64,000 nucleotides of DNA from positions 226,304-290,303 of the forward strand of contig CAZPQK010000004.1 of assembly GCA_964588695.1 (NCBI GenBank). The letters are read 5' to 3'. Numbering within the stretch: the first letter of the stretch is position 1; each line of letters begins with the position of its first letter. Both the position numbers and the translations under genes were made by a program. Shown here piece after piece: positions 38,884 through 51,647 of the stretch. The notes beneath the pieces were generated by a model. That model had not been told where the DNA came from and searched no databases. It saw nothing but the letters and a program-made list of their open reading frames with translations. Source of the stretch: an uncultured bacterium. GTDB lineage: Bacteria > Krumholzibacteriota > Krumholzibacteriia > WVZY01 > JAKEHA01.

Positions 38884-40188
38884 TTACTTCGCCAACCGGA
38901 TTCCGGAAAACTGCCACCGCGCGTGAGCCGGGAAAAAGTTGCGATAGCTCGCGCGAATATGGTTTCGACTGGTGGCGACCGACCCCCCACGCAATACGAA
39001 CTGGTTGCTCATGAACTTGCCGTTGTACTCGCCAAGTGCGCCGTCTCCCGCTCGATACCCGGGGTACGCTGTGTACTGGCTTTGAGTCCACTCCCATACA
39101 TCCCCGAACATCTGCGCCAACTCGCTGTCCGGCACGGCGCGATTCAACGCCCTGGGGTGAAACCGCTGGTCGTCGACAAAGTTTCCGGATGCGACCGGAT
39201 CTGTTTTTTGCCGCAACGCCCGCTCTGCGCCCACTTCCCACTCCGCTTCGGTGGCCAGGCGAGCTCCCGCCCAGCGTGCGTACGCATCGGCTTCGAAATA
39301 GCTCACGTGACAAACCGGCTCGGCATCTTCCAGTGGACGCATTCCGGACAGAGTCATGTTCCACCACTCACCTTCGCGTCGCTCCCAATACTCCGGATGC
39401 ACCCACCCCTCACTTTGCACAATGTTCCAACCCTCCGACAGCCACCATTGCGGATCCTGATAACCACCTGCGGCGATAAACTTTTTAAACTCGTTGTTGG
39501 TGACCAATCGGCAAGCGAGCGCAAAACCTTCAAGAAACACGCGGTGACGGGGGTGCTCGTTGTCGTAACCGAAACCGTCTCCGTGATGGCCGATTTCGTA
39601 TAACCCCTCGTCAAAACTCACCCAATCCATATCCGGCAGCACTTCCCCTCGCTTAACCGCGATATCGCGATAGGCCGGCTTAAGTGGGTTACACGAAAAC
39701 AGGTGCTTGATATCGGTGATGAGTAGTTCCTGGTGCTGCTGTTCGTGCTGCACGCCGATTTCAATCAACCCGGATAGCGTGGACAACAGGGCTTCGTCAG
39801 CCCCAGCGAGCAGCTGTTCCATGCCGGCGTCAACGTGGTCGCGATAATCCATGACCTCGCTTACGGTTGGCCGGGACAGTAGGCCGCGTTGCGGGCGGCT
39901 ATGTTGCTTGCCCACGGTGTTGTAGTACGAGTTGAATAGAAAATTAAACGCTTCGTTTGGCGTCTTATAATCCGGAAGATGGGCCTTAAGAAGAAACGTC
40001 TCAAAAAACCAACTGGTATGCGCGAGGTGCCACTTGGCTGGGCTGGCATCGGGCATTGATTGAACGACAAAATCCTCGGTTTCCAAAGGTTCGACCAGGT
40101 CGTGAGTTTGCTGACGAACGGCTCGATAACGGTCAGCCAGGGCGCGCGAAAACTCGTCGCGACTAGCGACTAAGCTTTTTGGGCTCAT
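38884..40188 (-). CDS. egtB: Ergothioneine biosynthesis sulfoxide synthase EgtB
   Basis: SPAKWHLAHTSWFFE, FNSYY, QHEQQHQE, FGE-sulfatase domain, YNGKFM, RNFF; adjacent to egtD. Confidence 0.93.
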   Translation of the reverse strand: MSPKSLVASRDEFSRALADRYRAVRQQTHDLVEPLETEDFVVQSMPDASPAKWHLAHTSWFFETFLLKAHLPDYKTPNEAFNFLFNSYYNTVGKQHSRPQRGLLSRPTVSEVMDYRDHVDAGMEQLLAGADEALLSTLSGLIEIGVQHEQQHQELLITDIKHLFSCNPLKPAYRDIAVKRGEVLPDMDWVSFDEGLYEIGHHGDGFGYDNEHPRHRVFLEGFALACRLVTNNEFKKFIAAGGYQDPQWWLSEGWNIVQSEGWVHPEYWERREGEWWNMTLSGMRPLEDAEPVCHVSYFEADAYARWAGARLATEAEWEVGAERALRQKTDPVASGNFVDDQRFHPRALNRAVPDSELAQMFGDVWEWTQSQYTAYPGYRAGDGALGEYNGKFMSNQFVLRGGSVATSRNHIRASYRNFFPAHARWQFSGIRLAK

Positions 40189-40326
40189 GGAGAAGGTCCT
40201 TCCGTTGAGGGCGATCACGATAAGTGACGCCGGTGGCGGAGGTTAGAGAGGATTTCCGCAGATTAAAGTGCCGAGTTATCGACATATTAACAGATGCCCG
40301 GTGACGTGGCAAACCATGCGCACGTT

Positions 40327-41298
40327 TTAGCCGCCGGTCTGAACCAAAAGGTAAACATAAACCGCGTATGCTGCAAACAGGATCAACCCCTGCCAGCGCT
40401 CGAGTTTCTTTTGCAACAGCGGTATGATCAAAACAACAGAGAACCCCAGCATCCACCAGATGTCCCGACTCAGTACGACTTCGCTTACCGCAAGCGGTTT
40501 AACCAGCGCCACCGTGCCCAGGATCCCACACACATTAAATATATTAGATCCGATGATGTTGCCCAACGCCACGCCGTCATGTTTGCGTATTGCGGCAACG
40601 ATCGCCGTGGTTAGCTCCGGAAGCCCGGTCCCCGCCGAAACCAAGGTCAGGCCGATAACTAAATCGCTGACACCCGCAAGGGCGGCGATTCGCGCCGCTC
40701 CGACCACCGTAAGGTCGGCGCCCCAAGAGAGCACCGCTGTTCCCCCGACGATGAGCAGTAGCGCTAGCGCCGGGTGGAGCACTCTCGCCGCGGGCTCGGC
40801 TTCGACGGTGGGGTCGAGCGGCACCTCTGCCCGGGCTTTTCCCGACGTGGCTCCTTTAACCCTCAACACCATGAACAGTGTCAGAAACACCAGTAGCACG
40901 GCCCCTTCGTAGCGAACAATCTGTCGATCCCAACAAAACAACAGCATCATCGCGCCCGAAGCCATCATCACGTAAATGTCGGTGCCGAGTCGTTGCAGGT
41001 TAAAGTGGAGCGGCGGCAGCAGAAACGCCGAAAGCCCAAGGATCAACGCAATGTTGAACATATTGGAACCGACGACGTTGCCAATGGCCATGTCGGCGTT
41101 ACCGGCGAGCGCAGCCTTCAGGCTAACCACAAGTTCGGGAAGCGACGTGGCCAGTGCGACCACCGTGAGTCCGATCACCGCAGTGGACACGCGAAAGCGA
41201 CGCGACAGATCGATGGCACCACGAACCAGAACTTCGCCGCCAACGACCAGAAGTGTCAGCCCCGCAAGCACGAAAAGTAGCGCTGTGGTAAGACTCAT
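40327..41298 (-). CDS. Calcium/sodium antiporter (CaCA, YrbG-like)
   Basis: Two alpha repeats: ATSLPEL...GNVVGSN and GTGLPEL...GNIIGSN. Confidence 0.93.
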   Translation of the reverse strand: MSLTTALLFVLAGLTLLVVGGEVLVRGAIDLSRRFRVSTAVIGLTVVALATSLPELVVSLKAALAGNADMAIGNVVGSNMFNIALILGLSAFLLPPLHFNLQRLGTDIYVMMASGAMMLLFCWDRQIVRYEGAVLLVFLTLFMVLRVKGATSGKARAEVPLDPTVEAEPAARVLHPALALLLIVGGTAVLSWGADLTVVGAARIAALAGVSDLVIGLTLVSAGTGLPELTTAIVAAIRKHDGVALGNIIGSNIFNVCGILGTVALVKPLAVSEVVLSRDIWWMLGFSVVLIIPLLQKKLERWQGLILFAAYAVYVYLLVQTGG

Positions 41299-41351
41299 CG
41301 CCCAATGTTATCCCAGCGTATTGGGGCGGGCAAGGCATTGATCGAGGTTGT

Positions 41352-41720
41352 TCAGGTCGCGTCGATCACAGCCTTAACGGTGTCGATGAGTTGCTGTCGC
41401 GAGAACGGTTTGGCGAGAGTTGCGTTGGCGCCGAGTGCGGCGGCCATGGCGAGTTGCGATTGAGAGTGTCCCGATGGTCCGCCGGAGATCGCGATAATTG
41501 GAATGTCATGAGTACGACGAATGTCGCGAATCAACTCGATTCCCTCCTTCTCCGGCATGTAGAGATCGGTAATGACCAGGTCAAATGCGCTTTCGGTAAA
41601 GGCCGCGTATCCAACGGCGCCGTTCTCGGCGGTCGCAACGCTAAACCCTTCGCGGCTTAGGATTTCGCTAGTGACGTGACGGACGTCTTCCTGGTCGTCT
41701 ACTACAAGTATGCGTCTCAT
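41352..41720 (-). CDS. Single-domain response regulator receiver
   Basis: ILVVDD, DLVITDLYMP, IIAISG, LAKPF. Confidence 0.92.
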   Translation of the reverse strand: MRRILVVDDQEDVRHVTSEILSREGFSVATAENGAVGYAAFTESAFDLVITDLYMPEKEGIELIRDIRRTHDIPIIAISGGPSGHSQSQLAMAAALGANATLAKPFSRQQLIDTVKAVIDAT

Positions 41721-41847
41721 CGTTTCCCTTTCGCAGATCATTTGGCTCGCATTTAGAAGATCGGTCAGAGCGAGGCGGGATTACAGAGACAATAGCGCCG
41801 ACAGCAAGGAAAACGTTGCCGGTGGAAAACGTATGTGTAGCAGAGGG

Positions 41848-42669
41848 TTAGAGCGCACTGCCGCAATCGCGGCAAAACTTGGCATCGTAGCGGTGGCCTT
41901 CGCTGGCGCATTGTGGACAGGCCTGGGTGGAAATCTTTTCGTGGCCGTGAACCAACTGCGACGTCACGATTCCCGTCGGAACCGCGATAATCGCGTAACC
42001 GCAAATCATTAGCAAAGACGACACAAACTTGCCCAGCGGCGTCTGCGGGCTCAGGTCTCCGTAGCCGACGGTGGTCATGGTAACGATGGCCCAGTAGATG
42101 CCCAGCGGAATGCTAGAAAAACCGTGTTCTTCGCCTTCGATGACATACATTACCGAACCCATGATCACCGTAATCGCGGTGACGGCGAACAGAAACACGA
42201 GAATCTTGCGGCGGCTCTGCTTCATCGCATGCCAAAGCGCTTCGGATTCGTTGACAAACTTAACAAGCTTCAGCACCCGAAAGATTCGCAGCAATCGGAG
42301 AATACGAATCACAAACAGAAAATGAGTGCCCGGAAGTAGAAGGTCCAGGTAGCTGGGGAGCACCGCTAGTAAGTCGATGATACCGAAGAAGCTGGTGGCG
42401 TAGCGTAGCGGGCGACCGATACAAATTAGCCGCAGCACGTACTCAATGGTAAAAACGATGGTGAAGATCCACTCAAGCAGATAAAGCTCGTAGCCCCAAA
42501 ACTTGCGGATCGACGGAACGCTTTCCAGCACAACCGCCAGCACACTTAGGACGATCGCCAGGATTAGCGCGACGTCAAAATTGCGCCCGGCCGGCGTGTC
42601 GGCTTCGAAAATGATTTCGTGTAGCCGATGGCGCCAACCATTAAGTTTATTCGATGACGAATCGCTCAT
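41848..42669 (-). CDS. Voltage-gated K+ channel-like ion transporter with C-terminal Zn ribbon
   Basis: S4-like IRILRLLRIFRVLKL, TTVGYGD filter, CPQC...CRDC. Confidence 0.92.
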   Translation of the reverse strand: MSDSSSNKLNGWRHRLHEIIFEADTPAGRNFDVALILAIVLSVLAVVLESVPSIRKFWGYELYLLEWIFTIVFTIEYVLRLICIGRPLRYATSFFGIIDLLAVLPSYLDLLLPGTHFLFVIRILRLLRIFRVLKLVKFVNESEALWHAMKQSRRKILVFLFAVTAITVIMGSVMYVIEGEEHGFSSIPLGIYWAIVTMTTVGYGDLSPQTPLGKFVSSLLMICGYAIIAVPTGIVTSQLVHGHEKISTQACPQCASEGHRYDAKFCRDCGSAL

Positions 42670-42746
42670 AACGGGACGGGCAAAACCCGCGGCCGGATTC
42701 TACAACGAGCCGAAACCGGTCGTCACGCACCGATTGTGCCCCCGGG

Positions 42747-43235
42747 CTAGCTGAAATTGATCTGCGGATGGGCATCTACAGGGGCATCGTCGTCGTGGAA
42801 GATACGATCAAGGGCCTGGTGGCGGTGGCTGAAGATGCGGGTCAGGTCCTTGCGAATAAACAGGCGGTTCACCAGAGCACCACCGGGAATGGCATAGCGA
42901 ACGTCGTCGGTTACCACCGTCGTGCCGTTTCGGGTTTCAAAGCGGTGTTCGTGAATCCAGTAACGGTAAGGTCCGCGCCGTTGCTCGTCGACAAACCTGT
43001 GCATTGGCTCGAACGCTGTAATCTCGCTTTGCCAACGTAGCGGAATACCGTGCAGCCTGATTCGGTAGTCGATTAATGTACCGGGCTCCATCGGGATCTC
43101 GCCTTTGGTGAGCACTTCGAAGCGTAGCCACGGTGGTGTAATGGTCTCCAGGTTGCGGGCGTTCGAGAAGAAATCGAAAACTTCTGATAACGGGCGCTGA
43201 ATGATTTGTGTCGTTTGGAGTCTGAAATCGCTCAT
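42747..43235 (-). CDS. SRPBCC family protein
   Basis: VFDFFS..RNLE.ITPPWL.F, FVDEQRRGPY..W.HEH.F; ATG overlaps the photolyase stop. Confidence 0.88.
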   Translation of the reverse strand: MSDFRLQTTQIIQRPLSEVFDFFSNARNLETITPPWLRFEVLTKGEIPMEPGTLIDYRIRLHGIPLRWQSEITAFEPMHRFVDEQRRGPYRYWIHEHRFETRNGTTVVTDDVRYAIPGGALVNRLFIRKDLTRIFSHRHQALDRIFHDDDAPVDAHPQINFS

Positions 43236-44671
43236 GCTTGGCTCGCTTTCAGTTGATCGTACGCGGCAAGTGCACGGTTGCGGCCGCGGGTGTGGTCGAT
43301 GACCGGCTTGGGGTACGTCTTGCCGAGATGAACATCGGCAGATAGCAGGACGTCGCGGGGAGCCTTCCACGGTTGATGGATGTATTTGTCGGGAAGCGCG
43401 GAAAGCTCTGGCACCCACCGGCGAACGTAATCGCCGGCGCGATCAAAACGTTCGCCTTGAAGAATCGGGTTAAACACACGAAAGTACGGAGCGGCGTCGG
43501 CACCACTACCAGCTACCCATTGCCAGCCCATCGTGTTGTTGGCGAGATCAGCATCAACCAACGTATCCCAGAACCAAGTTGCGCCTTCCTGCCAGTTGAT
43601 TAACAAGTGCTTAACGAGTAGCGACCCGGCAACCATCCGGACACGGTTATGCATCCATCCGGTGTGCCACAACTCACGCATTCCAGCGTCGACGATTGGA
43701 TATCCGGTCTTGCCGTGTTGCCACGCTGCCAGGTTGTCTCGCTGGGTCTGATCCCAGGGAAATCGTTCGAACTCAGGACGAAGCGGTTGGCGAGTGGTTT
43801 GAGGAAAATGAAACAGCAAGTGATAAGCGAACTCCCGCCACGCGATTTGTCGACGATAGGCTGAGCCATCGCGGCCGGTGCGCTGCTCCGCACGACGCAC
43901 TTCGTGCCAGACCCGCTTGGGGCTTAGGTTGCCAAAACGAAGGAACGGAGAAAGTTTCGATGTCGCTGGCTCGCTGGGAAAGTCGCGGTTGTCTTGATAC
44001 CCGAACACCGCGTCATCGAGAAAGCGGCGAAGCTGTTGTTGTCCGCCCGCTTCGCCGGGCTTCCATGCTTGACGCATTCCGCTTGCCCAATCGGGCGTAG
44101 GAAGCAGGTTCAACGCCTCCAACCGAACCGAGTCGGGCCACCTGGCGGGGGCGACTAATGCCTCCGGCGCGGGCACATGTTTGCCGGGGTCAGCAAGGGT
44201 GTGCAGGTGTTTCCAGAACGGCGTAAACACCTGAAACGGTCCGCCGGATTTGTTACGGACGTCTCGGGGATCAAAAAGTACGCGGTCGGTGAATGTTACC
44301 GCTCTGAGGTTGGCGTCGTTCAGCGCGGACGCCACTTTGGATTCGGCGTAGATTCCCGGTGGGTCGAAGCGCTGCTGCCACACGACGGTGTCAGCGCCAA
44401 CTTCTTCGGCAAGGTCGACAAGGACTCTGGGAGAAGGGCCGCGTTTTACGATAAGCCGCGAACCGACTTCGGCCAAAGAAGATCCGAGGGAAGCGAGCGA
44501 GTGAAACAACCACCAGCAGGCGGCGGCGCCAGTGGGCCACTCACCCTCTTCCTCGGAATTCATTATAAAAACCGGCACCACGACGCCACGCCGCGCCGCA
44601 AAACCAAGTGCGTCATTGTCGGCCAGCCGGTGGTCGTCACGAAACCAAACAATTGTTACGGGTCTGGGCAT
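43232..44671 (-). CDS. phrB: Deoxyribodipyrimidine photolyase (class I CPD)
   Basis: IVWFRDD.RL.DN, TSKLSP.L..G, GKTGYPIVDAGMREL, WMHNRVRM, DAD.ANN..GWQW; catalytic His/Trp pattern of CPD photolyases. Confidence 0.93.
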   Translation of the reverse strand: MPRPVTIVWFRDDHRLADNDALGFAARRGVVVPVFIMNSEEEGEWPTGAAACWWLFHSLASLGSSLAEVGSRLIVKRGPSPRVLVDLAEEVGADTVVWQQRFDPPGIYAESKVASALNDANLRAVTFTDRVLFDPRDVRNKSGGPFQVFTPFWKHLHTLADPGKHVPAPEALVAPARWPDSVRLEALNLLPTPDWASGMRQAWKPGEAGGQQQLRRFLDDAVFGYQDNRDFPSEPATSKLSPFLRFGNLSPKRVWHEVRRAEQRTGRDGSAYRRQIAWREFAYHLLFHFPQTTRQPLRPEFERFPWDQTQRDNLAAWQHGKTGYPIVDAGMRELWHTGWMHNRVRMVAGSLLVKHLLINWQEGATWFWDTLVDADLANNTMGWQWVAGSGADAAPYFRVFNPILQGERFDRAGDYVRRWVPELSALPDKYIHQPWKAPRDVLLSADVHLGKTYPKPVIDHTRGRNRALAAYDQLKASQA

Positions 44672-44700
44672 AGTGCCTTTGGGTTTAACGCTGCGCAACG

Positions 44701-45600
44701 CTACGCAATTTGCTCGAGTTGCATCCGCAGATCGCCGAGTCCATCGACCACCGTCACGCCGCTGCGGTGCAGGTCCTGTGCGCACAAGTTTGCCGCGCGC
44801 CCACCGACGAGTAGGGCAGCACCGTTGTCCAGGCCATCCTGCAACCGATTCAGTTCAACCGACAATGCATCGCGGTCGCCGACATAAGAGATGCTTAACG
44901 CCACCGCTTTTGCTTGGGTCTGGCGAACGGCGGCGACAATTTCGTGAGCTGGCAAGTCGGGGCCCAGGTAGATCACATCCCACCCCAACTCTTCGGCGAC
45001 GGCTGCCACCATAACGGCGCCAAGTTCGTGCAGTTGACCCGCTGGGGTTGTCACCACGACGCGCGGCGCCATGTGTCCGTTTGGCATTCGGCGAACGCGA
45101 TGAGTCGCTACGAACGAACGGACAACCGCTGACGCCAGATGCTCGTGGACCACACGAAGCGTTCCGTGTTTCCACCGGTCGCCGACTTCGTTTAGCAGCG
45201 GGACCAGCAGGCGCATGCGGACGTCGGGAGCGCTCATCTGAATCGCGGCTTCGCTGAGTACGCGTTCCAGGCGAGCGCGATCTAGCGCGGCGATCGCGTC
45301 CAATGCCTTCTCGAGTAGGGATTGGTCAATCGGCTGTGGCGCGCTAGCAGCGCCATGATCTTCCGAGACGATTTCGCGTAGCTGCTCAATCGTGAAGTCC
45401 GAAACGTCGCTAATCCGCCGGCCGCCGTCGACCGCTACTTTCAGAAGGCGAAGCTTTTCGATGTCGTTGTCGCTGTACAATCGTCGGCCCGTGTCAGTAC
45501 GGAGCGGCACGACCGCGCCGTATCGACGCTCCCACGCCCGAAGAAGATCGGGCGCCAGGCCCGTCCGTGCGGTAACCACACGGATGGGATGCCGAGGCAT
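44701..45600 (-). CDS. MerR-family regulator with B12-binding domain (CarH/LitR-like photoreceptor)
   Basis: MerR HTH (LRAWERRYG...RLYS); W-x9-EH (WKHGTLRVVHEH); PAGQLHELG; Rossmann B12 domain with VGG. Confidence 0.9.
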   Translation of the reverse strand: MPRHPIRVVTARTGLAPDLLRAWERRYGAVVPLRTDTGRRLYSDNDIEKLRLLKVAVDGGRRISDVSDFTIEQLREIVSEDHGAASAPQPIDQSLLEKALDAIAALDRARLERVLSEAAIQMSAPDVRMRLLVPLLNEVGDRWKHGTLRVVHEHLASAVVRSFVATHRVRRMPNGHMAPRVVVTTPAGQLHELGAVMVAAVAEELGWDVIYLGPDLPAHEIVAAVRQTQAKAVALSISYVGDRDALSVELNRLQDGLDNGAALLVGGRAANLCAQDLHRSGVTVVDGLGDLRMQLEQIA

Positions 45601-45630
45601 CGATTGTTTATGGCTAGCTTCCACACCCAT

Positions 45631-45708
45631 ATACTAACTGTCTGTCCAGGTGTTGTCAAGAAAATGCAAGATATTATCTTGACAAAACATAATCACACCG
45701 GTTATTTT
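45631..45708. promoter_or_regulatory. Back-to-back sigma70 promoters with CarH-operator-like repeats
   Basis: Minus strand TTGACA(45659-45654)-17 nt-TAGTAT; plus strand TTGACA(45679-45684)-18 nt-TATTTT; TnnACA repeats 11 bp apart at 45643-45649 and 45654-45660. Confidence 0.65.
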
Positions 45709-45771
45709 CTGGACGTAAGCGGACGAATAGCTACGGGACGCGCGCATGCGCGCAACCAAGCGGAGGAAACT

Positions 45772-46650
45772 ATGGGTACTTCGATTCCTAATAAGCGACA
45801 AGCGACCACCAAAGGTCGTTCCGACAGTGGGCTCGACACATACCTGGCCGAAATCAACCGCATCCCCCTGCTGACACGCGAACAGGAGCACGAATTGGGG
45901 CTGCGGATCCTCGACGGCGACGAGAATGCCGTTGATGAAATGGTGAACGCCAATCTCCGGTTCGTTGTCTCTATAGCCAAGCGGTACGCGAAACAAGGTG
46001 TGCCCCTCGAAGATTTGATCAACGAAGGCAACATTGGTCTGATTAAAGCGGCTCGACGCTTTGACGTTCACCGCGGGTATAAGTTCATCTCGTATGCGGT
46101 GTGGTGGATTCGGCAGGCTATTCTTCACTCGCTGTCTCAGAGCTCAAGGATTGTCCGGATTCCGCTGAATCGCACCGGAATTCTGCATCAGGTGGGTAAG
46201 GCGTCCCGCGAGCTGTTCCAAGAATTGGGACGGAACCCAAGTGCCCTGGAGATTGCGGAGCACCTTGACATTAAACTTAAGGACGTGGAGATCGCGCTGC
46301 GAACCCCTAGCACTCACGTTTCCCTCGACGAACCATACGACAGCGACTCGGACGACAACGCGCTTATTGACTATCTGGTGGACGAGTCAACCCCGTCGCC
46401 CGATGTTCCTTTGTACGAAGAAACACTCGGTAGCGACATGCGGCGTGCGCTTGCAACTCTCACCGAACGCGAGCAAAAGATCATGACGCTGTACTTTGGT
46501 TTAGGTGAAGAGGATCCTCTAACTCTCGAAGACGTCGGTCGGCGCCTTAACTTAACCCGCGAGCGTATTCGACAGATCAAAGAACAAGCAATTGCTCGAC
46601 TAAGGCACGAAAGCCGGGCCAAGTACATTCAAGGGTACGCCGAGAATTGA
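45772..46650 (+). CDS. RpoD/SigA-like sigma70 factor lacking region 1.1
   Basis: LDTYLAEINRIPLL (1.2), NLRFVVSIAKRY, DLINEGNIGL, KFISYAVWWIRQAI, LTRERIRQI (4.2); GGAGG RBS. Confidence 0.95.
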   Translation: MGTSIPNKRQATTKGRSDSGLDTYLAEINRIPLLTREQEHELGLRILDGDENAVDEMVNANLRFVVSIAKRYAKQGVPLEDLINEGNIGLIKAARRFDVHRGYKFISYAVWWIRQAILHSLSQSSRIVRIPLNRTGILHQVGKASRELFQELGRNPSALEIAEHLDIKLKDVEIALRTPSTHVSLDEPYDSDSDDNALIDYLVDESTPSPDVPLYEETLGSDMRRALATLTEREQKIMTLYFGLGEEDPLTLEDVGRRLNLTRERIRQIKEQAIARLRHESRAKYIQGYAEN

Positions 46651-46690
46651 TCGCGCTACCCGTCGAATCGGAACCTGGTAAGCTTTCCAC

Positions 46691-47134
46691 ATGACACTTG
46701 GGCTTTGGGTTGTTGTCGGGCACGCCGTAGCAACGCTTGTGATGGTTGGGCTGATTTGGTTCGTGCAGGTGGTTCACTATCCGTTGTTTGCGAAGGTGGG
46801 GAACGGTGCCTTTTCCGCCTACCACACGGCGCACATGCGGTTGACCACCTATGTAGTCGGTCCGCCGATGCTGTTCGAAGTCGCCGCTACAATTGCATTG
46901 TTCGTCATCCGTCCGCCGGCATTACCGTTGTGGTGGATTTGGTTGGGAGCGGTCTTGCTAGCCGGAGTTTGGCTTACGACAACGACTTTGTCGGTGCCCT
47001 ACCATCACAAAATGGCCAGGGGCTTTGACGCTCGAACCGTCAAACTACTGGTACGTACCAACTGGATCCGGACGATATTGTGGACGGCGCGCGGCGTCGT
47101 GTCGGTGCTAATGGTAAACGCACTCGTTAAGTAA
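46691..47134 (+). CDS. Hypothetical membrane protein
   Basis: About four hydrophobic helices; GLIWFVQVVHYP and NWIRT motifs. Confidence 0.75.
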   Translation: MTLGLWVVVGHAVATLVMVGLIWFVQVVHYPLFAKVGNGAFSAYHTAHMRLTTYVVGPPMLFEVAATIALFVIRPPALPLWWIWLGAVLLAGVWLTTTTLSVPYHHKMARGFDARTVKLLVRTNWIRTILWTARGVVSVLMVNALVK

Positions 47135-47144
47135 AGGCTCGGAC

Positions 47145-48059
47145 ATGAAGATTCTCATTAGCGGCGTAACTGGTTTCATTGGGCACAAACTGGCTCAACA
47201 GTTAACGCGCGATGGACACACAGTCTGCGGGTTCTCGCGAAACGCGGCATCCGCCAGGGAGCGGGTTCCCGAGCTCGCCGAAGCATTTGCGTGGCAACCG
47301 ACAACGCAATCACCGCCGAGTGAAGCGTTTGCCGGAGTCGACACGGTTGTTCATTTGCTGGGAGAAACTGTCGTCGGTCGATGGACCGACGAAAAAAAAC
47401 GGGCGATTCGGGAGTCGCGTGTAACCAGCACCCGTAGACTGGTGGATGCGATCGCAGCGTTGCCCGAAGGCGCGCGTCCACGCGCGTTGGTTAGTGCAAG
47501 TGCCATCGGGGCGTATGGTGATTCGGGCGATGAGCGCCTGGACGAATCCGCCCCAGTTGCCGATGACTTCTTGGGAAGTGTCTCCAAGGAATGGGAAGGT
47601 GAGGCCTATCGCGCGGAATCGGCAGGCGTTCGTGTGTGTACCCCCCGGATCGGGATTGTTCTGGGGGTTGATGGGGGTGCGCTGAAACCGATGTTGCTTT
47701 CGGCAAAGTTTGGCGTCGTGCCGGTGTTTGGCAGCGGCCGGCAATGGTGGTCGTGGATACACCGCGAAGACCTGGTTGCAATGCTTGCGGCGATGGCGCT
47801 TGACGATAACTGGCGCGGCGTTTACAACGCAACGGCACCGCAACCCGAGACACAGCGAACCTTTTCGCGGACACTAGCAAAAGTGAAAGGGCGATTTCTC
47901 ACGCCGCCGGTCCCAGCGGCACTCTTGCGGGTGGGGATGGGAGAGATGTCGGTGGAACTACTCTCCAGCAAGCGGGTCGTGCCCGAGCGAGCATTGACCC
48001 AGGGGTTTCAGTTCAAGTTTACCGAACTTCACGCCGCACTTGGCGACCTGGTGCAATAA
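47145..48059 (+). CDS. TIGR01777-like NAD-dependent epimerase/oxidoreductase
   Basis: ISGVTGFIG, SASAIG.YG, RIGIVLG..GGAL, WIH.EDL, ELLSSKRVVP. Confidence 0.88.
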   Translation: MKILISGVTGFIGHKLAQQLTRDGHTVCGFSRNAASARERVPELAEAFAWQPTTQSPPSEAFAGVDTVVHLLGETVVGRWTDEKKRAIRESRVTSTRRLVDAIAALPEGARPRALVSASAIGAYGDSGDERLDESAPVADDFLGSVSKEWEGEAYRAESAGVRVCTPRIGIVLGVDGGALKPMLLSAKFGVVPVFGSGRQWWSWIHREDLVAMLAAMALDDNWRGVYNATAPQPETQRTFSRTLAKVKGRFLTPPVPAALLRVGMGEMSVELLSSKRVVPERALTQGFQFKFTELHAALGDLVQ

Positions 48060-48060
48060 A

Positions 48061-48086
48061 AAGGCCGCGCCCATCGACGCGGCCTT
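48061..48086. terminator. Terminator hairpin between convergent genes
   Basis: AAGGCCGCG-8 nt-CGCGGCCTT with an A run on the left (T tail on the minus strand). Confidence 0.65.
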
Positions 48087-48109
48087 CCACCATGGTCCTG
48101 GTGCCAAAC

Positions 48110-48622
48110 CTAGCCCATCTTTTTTACCCGAGTCATCGTGGTGACCATTTCCATGTCCTTGCCATCGGGGCCCGGCATGGTAATCACCGACTTAAACGTG
48201 TCTTCGTCGACTTTCTCGATGGTCCGAACCATCTCGCCGTTGGGCGATTTCCAGGTCATCGTGACAACGTTGCCGTCGCGAGTGCCTTCGCCCTGCGACA
48301 TGTTGCGCATTGAATCATACCAGTAACCGTGGTACTTGCCGCCGGTGACGGTGAACACCGCCCGCCCTTTCATTTTCATCGGCCCCATGTCTCCAGACCA
48401 GTCCATCACCAGAAATTGATCATTCATCCCTAGCACGCAGTGCATCGACTCTTGCATCGTTCCCATCGCGGACTCGTTGGTTCCCGTCCACTCGCCCAGC
48501 ATCCAGGTGAGGATTTCGTCGTCGAGTGCCTTGGGTGCCATGTAGTTGCCGCTTTCCTGCGCGATAGCGAGCGGCGATGCCAGCAACATGCACGTGACCA
48601 GCGTTGCGATTCTTCTCTTCAT
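48110..48622 (-). CDS. DUF1579-like exported beta-barrel protein
   Basis: Signal peptide; L.WMLGEWTG; YHGYWYDSM; Met-rich. Confidence 0.6.
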   Translation of the reverse strand: MKRRIATLVTCMLLASPLAIAQESGNYMAPKALDDEILTWMLGEWTGTNESAMGTMQESMHCVLGMNDQFLVMDWSGDMGPMKMKGRAVFTVTGGKYHGYWYDSMRNMSQGEGTRDGNVVTMTWKSPNGEMVRTIEKVDEDTFKSVITMPGPDGKDMEMVTTMTRVKKMG

Positions 48623-48683
48623 GATCTCTCTCCTTGTTTAACGACGATCCGAACGTATCCGGCTATCGATTAAAAACCAACGG

Positions 48684-51647
48684 CTACTTTCGCGCCTCAG
48701 GAATCATCGTGAACTCCATGCGTTTCCCATCTCGCATAACAACCACTTCAAGTGGTTTGCCCACTTTCACTGCGTCGAGGGCGTAGGTGTAATCATAGAT
48801 GTTCTTAATATCCTGGCCGCCAAATTTGACAATAATGTCACCAGCTTGCAGGCCTGCCTTTTCCGCCGGGCCGCCGGCGCGCACGCCCGACAGCAACAAC
48901 CCTTCAACATCGTCGCCGGCATAGTCGGGGATCGTCCCCGTGTAGGCACGCAGACCGCCGCGGCCACCGCTCTGTTGAGACTTGGTGGGTTCAACCTTCA
49001 CATAGTCAAGCTGGTCGGCAGTTTTGGTTAGCTCGGTGATGACACCAAGCGCCAGTTTACCAATCCTCTCCATACCCTCGTAGTCCAGACGGTCCGCATC
49101 GTCGGTCGGACGGTTGTAGTCTTCATGGCTTCCGGTGAAGAAGCTCGCGACCGGTATGCCCTTCGGATAAAACGCGGTCACATCCGTTGGCAAATATGGA
49201 TCTTCGCCTAGTTGCAGATCGAAGCCAGCGACGACGTTCTTGTGTTCGAAAATGCCTTTCCACACCGACGACGAACCGATCCCCTGAATCTTAAGCTTGT
49301 TGTCGCGTAAGCGGCCAACCATGTCGAAGTTAAGATACGCGGCAATTCTTTCGCGATCCTGGTCGGCACCTTTGGTTGTCGCCATGGTTGGATTAGCGAC
49401 AAAGTAGTTCGAACCGATAATGCCTAGTTCCTCACCCGACCAGAACGCCACAATCACTCCGCGTTGAAACGCGGTAGTGTCTTTGCGCATTTCGCTAAGC
49501 TGCTGTGCCAGTTCCAGAACGACGGCGGTGCCAGAAGCGTTGTCGTCTGCGCCGTTGTGAATCTTGCCTTCTTCGCCGCTCTTGGCAAGCGAGCCGATCT
49601 CGCCATATCCGATGTGGTCATAGTGCGCGCCGATAACAACATAGTCACCGTTTGCGTCGGCGGGCGGAATTACACCGACGACGTTACGGCCTTGCTTGGT
49701 TTCGCGTTTTACCGCGGTGGCCAACTGCAGCGACGCGTCTGGAATCGGAAAGTGTCCCAGAAAGTGTGGGTTCTCTCGGTCGAGTTCTTTTTGAATTTCT
49801 TCAAGCGACTTGTCGTGGTTTGCTAGCAGTGTGTTGGCGACGTTCGTTGTGATTGACGCGACCCCGATACCCGAACTCGCCAGGCTTTGATCGAAGCTTA
49901 GCCCGACCAGTTTGCCCGCGTTGGGCGAGGTCGGCCCGGTAACGACCAGGAGCGCTTTCGCGCCGTTCTCGCGGGCGATCATCGCCTTGTAGCGAAGGCC
50001 CGCGTAACGGTTTAGTGCCTGACGCCGCTCGGTAGATACATCCTCTGGTACATACCGCAGCACCATCACCACTTTGTCTTTCACATCAAGGCCGTCGTAC
50101 GAGTTGTACGATTCGCCGGCATCGCCGGGTACCCGCAGGCCGTAACCGGCAAACACCACGTCACCGGAAAACTCGCCGTTCTCGGAAAACGCTAGCGGAC
50201 GAAAGTCTTGTTCGACCGCGTACTTGACGTTCTTCCCGGCAACGGAAACTTGCAGGCCGCAATTTGCCTTGTCGACTTTCACCCCCGACGTAAACGGAAA
50301 CTCCTGAATGTACGACTTGCCGGAAAGCGGGGCGACTCCCATCTGTTCAAGCGACTCGGCCAGATACTTAGCCGCGGCCTTCTCGCCTTTGGTGCCGGTC
50401 ATGCGGCCTTCCATTTTGTCGCTGGCCAGGATTGATGCGTGATGACGCAAATCGTCCGCGCTAATCTCTACCGAGGTGGAACCGCCCCCGCTACCTGCGC
50501 CATGGGTTGCCGCCTCCTTTTGTACCGTCCCGCGTTCGGGTGCTTCGGCCAGCGCATTGAGAGCCGCTCGATGGTTCCAGTTACCCAAATAGACCTGGGA
50601 CATTCCACCGCTGCGGGTTGACGTCCATACCAGCTTTTTGCCGTCGGGAGAAAACACCGGCAGTCCGTCAAAACCATCGGTGTAGGTCACCCGCACGGGT
50701 TCTCGCGTTCCCATCGCGTCTACAATAAACACTTCAAAGTTTTCAAAGCCGTGCTTGTTGGTGGTGAACACCACGTACTCGCCGCTGGGATGAAAGTACG
50801 GCGCCCACGACATACTGGCGAAATCGGTGAGCTGGCGGCGGTCACTGCCGTCGAGTTTCATCGTATACACGTCAGCAACGGTGCCCTTTTCGCCAAAGTG
50901 TCTCCATACAATCCGCTCGCCGTCGGGCGAAAAGAACGGGCCGCCGTCATAACCAGGCCAGTTCGTGAGCCGAGTTTGGTTACTGCCATCCGCGTCCATC
51001 AAGTAAATCTCGCCAAAGTAGCTTGGGTCGTACTCGAGTCTCTTAGCGTCTTCGCTGGAAAGGTTGCTGGCGGGATACGCGTTGCGCATCGAGCAGAAAA
51101 CAATCTTACTGCCGTCGGGAGAGTAAGCGCCTTCGGCGTCGTATCCATTGGCATCGGTGAGTCGTTGTGTTTGGCTGCCGTCGCGCTGGGTGACGAAGAT
51201 GTCAAAAGACTCGTCGTAGTCCCACGCGTAACGACGTTCTTTCCCCGAAGCACGAAAATCGAGTTCGGCCTTCTGCTTAGCACGGGCGTCGGGGTCCAGG
51301 TGTGTGGACGCGAACAGCACTTCGTTGGTACCGGGTCGGAAGAAGGCGCAGGTGGTTTTCCCGTGTCCGGGCGAAACCCGATGCGTGTCTCCGCTAGTCA
51401 GGTCGAGCATAAAAATCTGGTAGAACGGATTGTCCGGATCTCGCTCGCTTTGAAAGATCAGCGCGTTCCCGTCGGGAGAAAAGTACGACTCGCCTGAGCG
51501 CCGTCCATCGAAGGTCAGCTGGCGGGCGTTTTCTATGAAGAGGTCGCCGCTGGCTTTCGCCGTTGTTGTGGCGGGGAAGGCGGCAGCGATCCAGGCTGCG
51601 GCAACCCAAAGGCCCAGGCCTCGCATTGTGGCTGTGAAGATAGTCAA
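48684..51647 (-). CDS. M28 peptidase with PD40/TolB repeats, PA domain and C-terminal PDZ
   Basis: FSPDG repeats; VFAGYG (PA); GAHYDH, GADDNASG, GEELG, NFDMVG (M28); GTIPDY...GPAEKAGLQAGDII (PDZ); TTG start with AAGGAG RBS. Confidence 0.92.
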   Translation of the reverse strand: MTIFTATMRGLGLWVAAAWIAAAFPATTTAKASGDLFIENARQLTFDGRRSGESYFSPDGNALIFQSERDPDNPFYQIFMLDLTSGDTHRVSPGHGKTTCAFFRPGTNEVLFASTHLDPDARAKQKAELDFRASGKERRYAWDYDESFDIFVTQRDGSQTQRLTDANGYDAEGAYSPDGSKIVFCSMRNAYPASNLSSEDAKRLEYDPSYFGEIYLMDADGSNQTRLTNWPGYDGGPFFSPDGERIVWRHFGEKGTVADVYTMKLDGSDRRQLTDFASMSWAPYFHPSGEYVVFTTNKHGFENFEVFIVDAMGTREPVRVTYTDGFDGLPVFSPDGKKLVWTSTRSGGMSQVYLGNWNHRAALNALAEAPERGTVQKEAATHGAGSGGGSTSVEISADDLRHHASILASDKMEGRMTGTKGEKAAAKYLAESLEQMGVAPLSGKSYIQEFPFTSGVKVDKANCGLQVSVAGKNVKYAVEQDFRPLAFSENGEFSGDVVFAGYGLRVPGDAGESYNSYDGLDVKDKVVMVLRYVPEDVSTERRQALNRYAGLRYKAMIARENGAKALLVVTGPTSPNAGKLVGLSFDQSLASSGIGVASITTNVANTLLANHDKSLEEIQKELDRENPHFLGHFPIPDASLQLATAVKRETKQGRNVVGVIPPADANGDYVVIGAHYDHIGYGEIGSLAKSGEEGKIHNGADDNASGTAVVLELAQQLSEMRKDTTAFQRGVIVAFWSGEELGIIGSNYFVANPTMATTKGADQDRERIAAYLNFDMVGRLRDNKLKIQGIGSSSVWKGIFEHKNVVAGFDLQLGEDPYLPTDVTAFYPKGIPVASFFTGSHEDYNRPTDDADRLDYEGMERIGKLALGVITELTKTADQLDYVKVEPTKSQQSGGRGGLRAYTGTIPDYAGDDVEGLLLSGVRAGGPAEKAGLQAGDIIVKFGGQDIKNIYDYTYALDAVKVGKPLEVVVMRDGKRMEFTMIPEARK

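Follow-up and report, generated by a model that had tools for sequence, protein, structure and literature searches.

Can a light sensor built on vitamin B12 govern a sigma factor of primary-like type in a bacterium without recognizable carotenoid genes? The question is raised by a locus in the 64,000-nucleotide stretch analysed here (the window, whose own numbering is used below), which corresponds to positions 226304-290303 of contig C4 in a 3.44-Mb, 24-contig, 96.7% complete genome from the Krumholzibacteriota. A gene for a CarH-like photoreceptor-repressor, carH (44701-45600, minus strand), and a gene for a sigma-70 protein (45772-46650, plus strand) diverge there from a short common gap. 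With moderate confidence we propose that the two constitute a light switch, composed of a class I CarH/LitR-type adenosylcobalamin (AdoCbl) photoreceptor and a dedicated sigma factor outside the extracytoplasmic function (ECF) group. The original prediction, made from these letters, had described a CarH-like, a photolyase and an SRPBCC gene running leftward, and a sigma70, a membrane-protein and a TIGR01777-like gene running rightward, from a shared gap of 171 bp. All six genes lie where it placed them, and the length of the gap (45601-45771) holds with the carH ATG at 45600. An automatic gene call on an identical contig uses an alternative ATG at 45630, which reduces the gap to 141 bp. We prefer the start at 45600, since the alignments of homologs begin no earlier than residue 2-3 of that shorter protein; furthermore, the predicted carH -10 box (45631-45636) abuts the ATG at 45630, which would therefore fall outside the transcript.

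The comparative evidence for the pairing of CarH with this sigma factor appears solid. CarH homologs were found in 13 of the 23 genomes that make up the family, and the synteny search that the original prediction had suggested located a sigma gene divergently upstream in all 13, across four genera and at approximately 50% protein identity. Each of the 13 also carries a photolyase. In one further genome (G009) the linked sigma lies at a contig end and a photolyase is present; carH was not found and would lie beyond the contig edge. Genome G008 has a photolyase and neither of the other two, and the remaining eight, including the single-contig G007, lack CarH, linked sigma and photolyase alike. 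No case of CarH without the linked sigma was encountered among the 23 family genomes. It seems that the three genes form a single light module, acquired and discarded together.

At the level of order and class, CarH adjoins a photolyase, SRPBCC or membrane-protein gene, and no sigma gene was present near it within the flanks fetched. Among the best 80 CarH loci, which come from Gemmatimonadota, Gammaproteobacteria, Acidobacteriota and others, a non-ECF sigma gene lies within 5 kb only in the Krumholzibacteriia family and in one Acidobacteriota metagenome-assembled genome (MAG). We place the origin of the pairing within the family, since that MAG is the only instance from another phylum among these 80. 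Conversely, none of the best 80 short-sigma loci of other phyla has a CarH gene nearby. The Acidobacteriota MAG (L209, JBECKR010000160.1; 3770-4486 and 5001-5915) carries CarH with a divergently adjacent non-ECF sigma-like gene of 36% identity, and this looks like an independent case.

The carH-sigma gap looks like a CarH operator. When 41500-48800 (7.3 kb) was scanned for sigma-70-type promoters, the two best matches, at 10/12 each, proved to be a divergent pair in this gap. The predicted carH promoter (45631-45659, minus strand) consists of TTGACA (45659-45654), a 17-nt spacer and TAGTAT (45636-45631), and the predicted sigma promoter (45679-45708, plus strand) of TTGACA (45679-45684), a spacer of 17 or 18 nt and TTATTT or TATTTT. 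A perfect 9-bp inverted repeat, TTGTCAAGA-N15-TCTTGACAA (45653-45685, with arms at 45653-45661 and 45677-45685), can be read from the sequence; it puts both -35 boxes back to back with an A/T-rich spacer of 19 bp between them, an arrangement that is unique in the genome. In the orthologous gaps the carH -35 box is kept in 13/13 and the sigma TTGACA was found in 9/13, and a collinear layout with back-to-back -35 boxes 19-20 bp apart occurs in eight of the 12 orthologs that could be anchored.

Characterised CarH operators comprise tandem 11-bp direct repeats of the form nnnnTnnACAn overlapping a -35 or -10 box, with three or four repeats of which some are degenerate (PMC9304148). The candidate operator in the gap (45631-45674, minus strand) conforms to this rule: its four 11-bp units span the -35 box, spacer and -10 box of the carH promoter. 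Two are exact TnnACA repeats set 11 bp apart, namely TTGACA (45659-45654), which is the -35 box itself, and TGGACA (45648-45643); they are flanked on either side by the pseudo-repeats TTAGTA (45637-45632) and CTTGCA (45670-45665). Despite approximately 50% protein divergence, the motif TGTC-N7-TGTCAA stands at the same place in 13/13 orthologous gaps, and the stricter TGTCC-N6-TGTCAA occurs once in the 3.44-Mb genome. With a slightly relaxed pattern, most CarH-bearing relatives have no match anywhere in the genome other than the carH-sigma gap; CarH-less genomes gave 0-1 chance matches, as did controls with the reversed pattern. Most relatives carry a second element over the sigma -10 box, in the form of tandem TGTnnA repeats in the same orientation or of a TTGTC-N3-GACAA palindrome.

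It is conceivable that CarH photoregulates its own operon only, that the sigma promoter is constitutive or otherwise controlled, and that their adjacency merely reflects shared ancestry of the block. We consider this unlikely. It would account for the exact TnnACA repeats overlapping the carH promoter alone and for the degenerate -10 element of the sigma promoter in this genome, and it draws on the order- and class-level relatives, in which CarH stands beside photolyase, SRPBCC or membrane-protein genes and no sigma; because of that arrangement we regard a direct repair regulon as the ancestral state. It does not readily explain why the divergent pair persists in 13/13 CarH-bearing genomes of four genera at approximately 50% protein identity and why CarH and sigma are lost together, nor why the back-to-back -35 boxes are kept at 19-20 bp in eight collinear orthologs and repeats of the same type and orientation cover the sigma -10 box in most relatives. 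We think it rather likely that the sigma gene is under CarH control.

Several further features of this region were observed. In G014, G018 and G001 (L102, L104 and L115/L156) a gene for a small DUF378 membrane protein (Pfam E 1.4e-25) separates the sigma gene from the shared promoter region, which makes sigma the second gene of its operon. Genome G005 has three extra operator-like TGTCY-N6-TGTCAAG copies (L297, G005:C284 at about 2706; L296, G005:C102 at about 3032; and L264 at 6985), two of which extend to TGTCCAT-N4-TGTCAAGGACAT. One copy precedes a leftward operon whose last gene codes for a 413-amino acid protein with a motif like that of light-oxygen-voltage (LOV) domains (GITIAD...PLIYVNKGFERLTGYS), which suggests that CarH may control a second photoreceptor in that genome. 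The sigma gene of the window has a GGAGGA ribosome-binding site (45762-45767), and 15-30 nt before its start there is a GC-rich palindrome (GCGCGCATGCGCGC, 45744-45757) with counterparts of differing sequence in about 8/13 orthologs (L092, L093, L095, L096, L100, L102 and L104). As a leader hairpin it folds here no more stably than shuffled sequence (z = 0.44), and we claim no function for it. An Rfam scan of 40000-50000 gave no matches.

The 299-amino acid CarH protein carries all the sequence hallmarks of an AdoCbl photoreceptor-repressor and looks functional. It is composed of an N-terminal MerR-type helix-turn-helix domain (PF13411, 46 bits), a four-helix bundle of the B12-binding_2 family (PF02607, 51 bits) and a Rossmann-fold B12-binding domain (PF02310, 63 bits), all above their cut-offs. 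Against Thermus CarH (PDB accession number 5C8D; E 2.5e-28) both the Wx9EH motif and the axial histidine are kept: W143-x9-E153-H154 and H191-E-L-G (HxxG) match the corresponding residues, and W143, E153, H154 and H191 are invariant in 19 homologs. The residue two before the axial histidine is Gln here and acidic in the motif. A scan with the single CarH sequence gave four loci, and the 19-sequence alignment was too diverse for a pattern search. carH is the only gene of its type in the genome, the sole other B12-binding_2 match being MetH. An adenosyltransferase of the CobA/BtuR type is encoded as well, and a search of the genome for one of the PduO type found none. Since MetH and CobA/BtuR are both encoded, corrinoids are used in this organism and can be adenosylated.

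Not every B12-binding MerR regulator is a photoreceptor, and the protein might instead sense cobalamin supply; the locus would then link an alternative sigma factor to B12 status. This we hold to be quite improbable, given the invariance of Wx9EH and the axial histidine, which are hallmarks of the photoactive AdoCbl-CarH class, and an operon partner, photolyase, that is itself a light-dependent enzyme. The joint loss of CarH, sigma and photolyase from eight family genomes also fits a light module discarded in dark habitats. We consider it very probable that CarH responds to light and B12 and autoregulates the photolyase operon.

The CarH-linked sigma factor arose by duplication of the lineage's short Bacteroidetes-type sigma, is specific to the family and evolves fast. 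It has 292 amino acids, with regions 1.2, 2, 3 and 4 each above the Pfam cut-off and no region 1.1. The genome encodes four sigma factors with region 1.2, the other three being a 586-amino acid RpoD with region 1.1 and a long spacer (C11:9543-11339), the conserved copy of the short Bacteroidetes-type sigma (about 298 amino acids; C8:34266-35159) and an RpoS-like sigma (about 290 amino acids; C10:60543-61487). Because of these, the linked sigma is not the only RpoD-like sigma of the genome. It cannot be taken for the group 1 housekeeping RpoD either, as it starts at region 1.2, is 292 amino acids long and coexists with the separate 586-residue RpoD. In NCBIfam no equivalog cut-off was reached (PRK05658, 264 bits where 555 are required). 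In 37 genomes of the family, order and class, the other three types, long RpoD, short sigma and RpoS-like sigma, are nearly always present; across the order, every genome surveyed (relatives G001-G036) has, besides a long RpoD of about 590-630 amino acids with region 1.1, both an RpoS-like sigma and a short sigma of Bacteroidetes type, the latter highly conserved.

Among the best 80 matches, the nearest relatives outside the lineage are short sigma factors without region 1.1 (50-58% identity) from Bacteroidota, Gemmatimonadota, Ignavibacteriota, Calditrichota and Latescibacterota, and the nearest outgroup sigma comes from a Krumholzibacteriales MAG. In a maximum-likelihood tree all CarH-linked sigmas fall into one clade (ultrafast bootstrap, UFBoot, 100; Shimodaira-Hasegawa-like approximate likelihood ratio test, SH-aLRT, 99), which also takes in the tandem second copy of G001 and the contig-end copy of G009. 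This clade is nested in that of the Krumholzibacteriia short sigmas, which joins those of Bacteroidota, Ignavibacteriota and Gemmatimonadota. Its terminal branches are long, at 0.35-0.8 substitutions per site, where the conserved paralog has a median of 0.05. Placing the linked sigma as sister of the conserved copy in the same genome, as a separate duplication there would require, lowers the log-likelihood by 17 units; the approximately unbiased (AU) test is borderline (p-AU 0.059), and synteny speaks against this placement. The original prediction of a primary-type sigma paralog thus stands as regards the paralog, which the phylogeny sets apart from the conserved copy and which the 586-residue RpoD shows not to be the sole RpoD; it does not stand as regards a classical group 1 factor, the protein being a copy of the short Bacteroidetes-type sigma that lacks region 1.1.

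Identity to the conserved short sigma is 61-64%, with the divergence concentrated in regions 2.4 and 3.0. There the conserved copy reads RQAMLQSLAEHSR...PLNRAGTLYRIGK and the copies of genus g5 read RQSILVSVSENSR...PMNRVGLAQRATK, that of the present genome being intermediate. The view that the linked sigma is a redundant recent duplicate, possibly decaying and without a specific role, can appeal to this identity, to a shared region 4.2 recognition helix and to the AU test that did not quite reject the sister tree, yet it seems to us very improbable with a reading frame intact in 14/14 clade members, all four regions above their Pfam cut-offs, a clade that spans four genera and includes a tandem second copy in G001, and a retention that tracks CarH exactly where a neutral duplicate would be lost independently.

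The two tandem copies in G001 (L156, G001:C429, 828-1673 and 4243-5076) enclose a gene for a 606-amino acid DUF4397 protein with a type IX secretion C-terminal sorting domain. DUF4397 proteins are also encoded downstream of sigma in G004, G018 and G009, and within the carH operon in G005.

Which promoters might such a sigma factor serve? In genus g5 the photolyase gene is unlinked to CarH and lacks CarH-type TnnACA repeats, so that any photoregulation there would be indirect. The g5 photolyases are preceded, 8-9 nt before the ATG, by a conserved TTTGC-N19-TA(C/G)ATT. In its more general form, TTTGC-N19-TAnA(T/G)T, the motif is found 8-30 nt before the starts of photolyase, metG, mrp/apbC and htrA in g5 (L252-L262 and L265-L294), a position from which leaders should be very short or missing and which points to a -33/-7 promoter class like that of Bacteroidetes; the promoters of the carH-sigma gap are of another type, TTGACA-N17. 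The motif resembles the Bacteroidetes promoter type with TTTG at -33 and a TA-rich -7 element, and this promoter class is probably read by the conserved short sigma. In the genome under study the motif is not enriched, with five matches against five in the reversed control. As a signature of the linked sigma it was rejected, being a general promoter type shared with genomes that lack both CarH and the sigma.

The operon partners of carH point to repair and photoprotection. The photolyase gene (43232-44671, minus strand; 479 amino acids), which begins 29 bp downstream of carH, encodes a member of the class I cyclobutane pyrimidine dimer (CPD) photolyase/cryptochrome family (PF00875 and PF03441, E 4e-90); with 343-377 bits it stays under the equivalog cut-offs of the NCBIfam photolyase and cryptochrome models. 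Its stop codon overlaps by 4 bp the ATG of the final gene of the operon, which codes for a 162-amino acid SRPBCC protein of the polyketide-cyclase/START fold (42747-43235, minus strand; PF03364, E 1.2e-10). Homologs of the latter adjoin CarH in many relatives. On the other side, 40 bp after the sigma gene, begins a gene for a four-helix membrane protein of 147 amino acids (46691-47134, plus strand), which reached no family cut-off; its weak match (E 0.025) is to UPF0093, which we take to be a HemJ-like family. After a further 10 bp follows a 304-amino acid NAD-dependent, epimerase-fold oxidoreductase of the TIGR01777 family (YfcH/ThyD-like; 47145-48059, plus strand), which scores 294 bits against a cut-off of 207 and contains PF01370 together with a C-terminal DUF1731 domain (PF08338).

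Homologs of the membrane protein accompany CarH in other lineages (L202, L215). A class-level relative whose CarH has no sigma beside it (G050/L202) encodes one directly after CarH, and in a Gemmatimonadota MAG one is found near CarH. Since they adjoin CarH in relatives where no sigma does, we regard the membrane-protein gene as a gene of the light locus. A role as anti-sigma partner was considered and discarded, as the homologs travel with CarH, also where no sigma adjoins. Of the genes that follow sigma, none is conserved throughout the family. Regulators of the LitR/CarH family are typically accompanied by photolyase, SRPBCC, TIGR01777 and small membrane proteins. The class II LitR regulons of Pseudomonas comprise a photolyase and several oxidoreductases, with no carotenoid genes (PMC9758184). 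In G005 a long leftward operon (L264, G005:C45, 1776-9588) contains carH, an NmrA/DUF2867 reductase, a fasciclin lipoprotein, a DUF4397 protein, photolyase, SRPBCC and a DUF523-DUF1722 protein (2-thiouracil desulfurase family), and gives a fuller picture of the direct light regulon of the family. Directly downstream of the SRPBCC gene in the window lies a gene for a K+ channel of the voltage-gated type (41848-42669, minus strand) with a C-terminal zinc-ribbon-like CxxC...CxxC. A homolog of this channel, 52% identical, is divergent from a distant CarH-like gene in a Bacteriovoracaceae MAG (L088, 1736-2533 and 2666-3409), which may be coincidence or a recurrent link.

No route to carotenoids was recognized. 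The window contains no crt genes, as had been remarked at the outset, and the observation extends to the whole genome and the family: a search for SQS_PSY (CrtB/CrtM; phytoene or squalene synthase) found none in the 96.7%-complete genome and none in the 23 family genomes, and eight of the control genomes gave matches. In the absence of any SQS_PSY family gene, the lineage that carries the module must lack carotenoids made by way of CrtB or CrtM.

The mechanism that we propose is as follows. In the dark, oligomers of AdoCbl-bound CarH would occupy the tandem 11-bp TnnACA repeats, which cover the carH promoter at its -35 box and spacer and come within 4-5 bp of the back-to-back sigma -35 box. 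Both divergent operons, carH-photolyase-SRPBCC and sigma-membrane protein-TIGR01777, would then be off. In the light, photolysis of AdoCbl would free the DNA of CarH, as the known photochemistry of the family suggests, and the repair and photoprotection genes would be transcribed together with sigma. The sigma factor would join core RNA polymerase and extend or amplify the response at promoters elsewhere in the genome. Since most family members have one CarH operator per genome, a wider light response could be reached only through sigma. Whether it in fact drives a distinct wider regulon is close to evenly balanced in our judgement, leaning slightly towards the negative. More speculative, and on balance unlikely, is the notion that in this carotenoid-free, non-phototrophic family all photoregulation beyond the two operons passes through the sigma, acting as a global factor for light/dark (day/night) reprogramming.

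A number of observations weigh against this scheme. The CarH protein scores 132 bits over 286 residues with NF052513, its best-scoring NCBIfam model, where the cut-off of this CarH equivalog is 400, and is for that reason a distant member of the family with no close ortholog among the seed proteins. The exact repeats stand on the carH side, at about -85 to -42 from the predicted sigma transcription start, and the candidate operator overlaps the carH promoter and stops 4-5 bp before the sigma -35 box. In this genome the second element, over the sigma -10 box, is degenerate (TTTTCTGGACG), both TGT cores having been lost, so that repression of the sigma promoter would require a footprint long enough to include the neighbouring -35 box or the A/T-rich stretch upstream of it. 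For this genome, occlusion of that promoter from the first operator is the weakest link. The region 4.2 recognition helix (TRERIRQIKE) is the same as in the conserved short sigma, and a distinct regulon is consequently not evident from the sequence. The TTTGC-N19 motif precedes metG, mrp/apbC and htrA also in genomes without CarH and the linked sigma, and therefore cannot be assigned to that sigma or define a light regulon. Finally, the runs that hold this sequence are three in number, all of DNA.

The B12-photoreceptor circuits known so far end at carotenoid genes, which they reach either directly or by way of an intermediary, an ECF sigma in Streptomyces and a CRP-type activator in Thermus. 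In the present locus this sensor is paired with a duplicated primary-like sigma, in a candidate phylum that has no cultured model and in a family free of carotenoid genes. If the proposal is true, a non-phototroph can devote a sigma of near-housekeeping type to light. The locus would also provide an entry point to gene regulation in the Krumholzibacteriota, reduced to one 171-bp fragment, one repressor and one sigma, and the co-loss of CarH, sigma and photolyase in eight family genomes may offer a genomic marker of light-exposed versus dark lifestyles in MAGs. A full-text literature search, whose coverage did not extend to subscription journals, found no non-ECF sigma described as being under CarH/LitR control.

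Parts of the arrangement have parallels elsewhere. Cyanobacterial group 2 sigmas (SigB, SigD and others) are non-essential, primary-like factors without a full region 1.1, with light-responsive abundance and a broad regulon. A globally acting sigma in the present family would functionally resemble them, though gated directly by a B12 photoreceptor; this remains a tentative comparison that we think will more probably fail than hold. The lineages are unrelated, and light induction in cyanobacteria is not known to act through a B12 photoreceptor encoded beside the sigma gene. Any likeness is one of function only. As regards protein type the closer counterpart is sigma-ABfr, the primary sigma of Bacteroidetes, which is of the short RpoD-like kind according to the account of Vingadassalom et al. 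(2005) given in PMC7366714. Like it, the linked sigma is a short RpoD-like protein without region 1.1; unlike it, this is an extra, fast-evolving paralog that stands beside a conserved short sigma and a long RpoD and is tied to a photoreceptor gene.

The photoreceptor resembles CarH/LitR of Thermus thermophilus (PDB accession numbers 5C8D-F) in domain architecture, Wx9EH motif and axial histidine, and the predicted two-tier design, with a photoreceptor set over a second transcription factor, recalls the CarH/LitR-LdrP pair of the same organism. The second tier in Thermus is LdrP, an activator of the CRP/FNR type, and the output is carotenoid synthesis. A sigma factor would form the second tier in the system proposed here, with photolyase, SRPBCC, TIGR01777 and the membrane protein as the linked outputs. 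Common to both are the operator of 11-bp TnnACA repeats that includes a -35 box (PMC9304148) and, as a prediction for the present locus, autoregulation from a divergent intergenic region.

The nearest overall parallel is with the LitR-LitS system of Streptomyces, in which a class I LitR is encoded next to an ECF sigma, as reported from Takano et al. (2005) in PMC9758184 and PMC11519972. In both cases the gene for an AdoCbl-type photoreceptor adjoins that of a dedicated sigma, and in the present family the two are inherited together. In Streptomyces light lifts the repression and the sigma passes the signal on to further promoters; a cascade of the same form is what we would expect here. The known targets of LitS are carotenoid genes, whereas this genome and its family have no phytoene or squalene synthase. 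LitS is furthermore an ECF (group 4) factor with regions 2 and 4 only, unlike the CarH-linked sigma described here, which with its regions 1.2, 2, 3 and 4 is primary-like.

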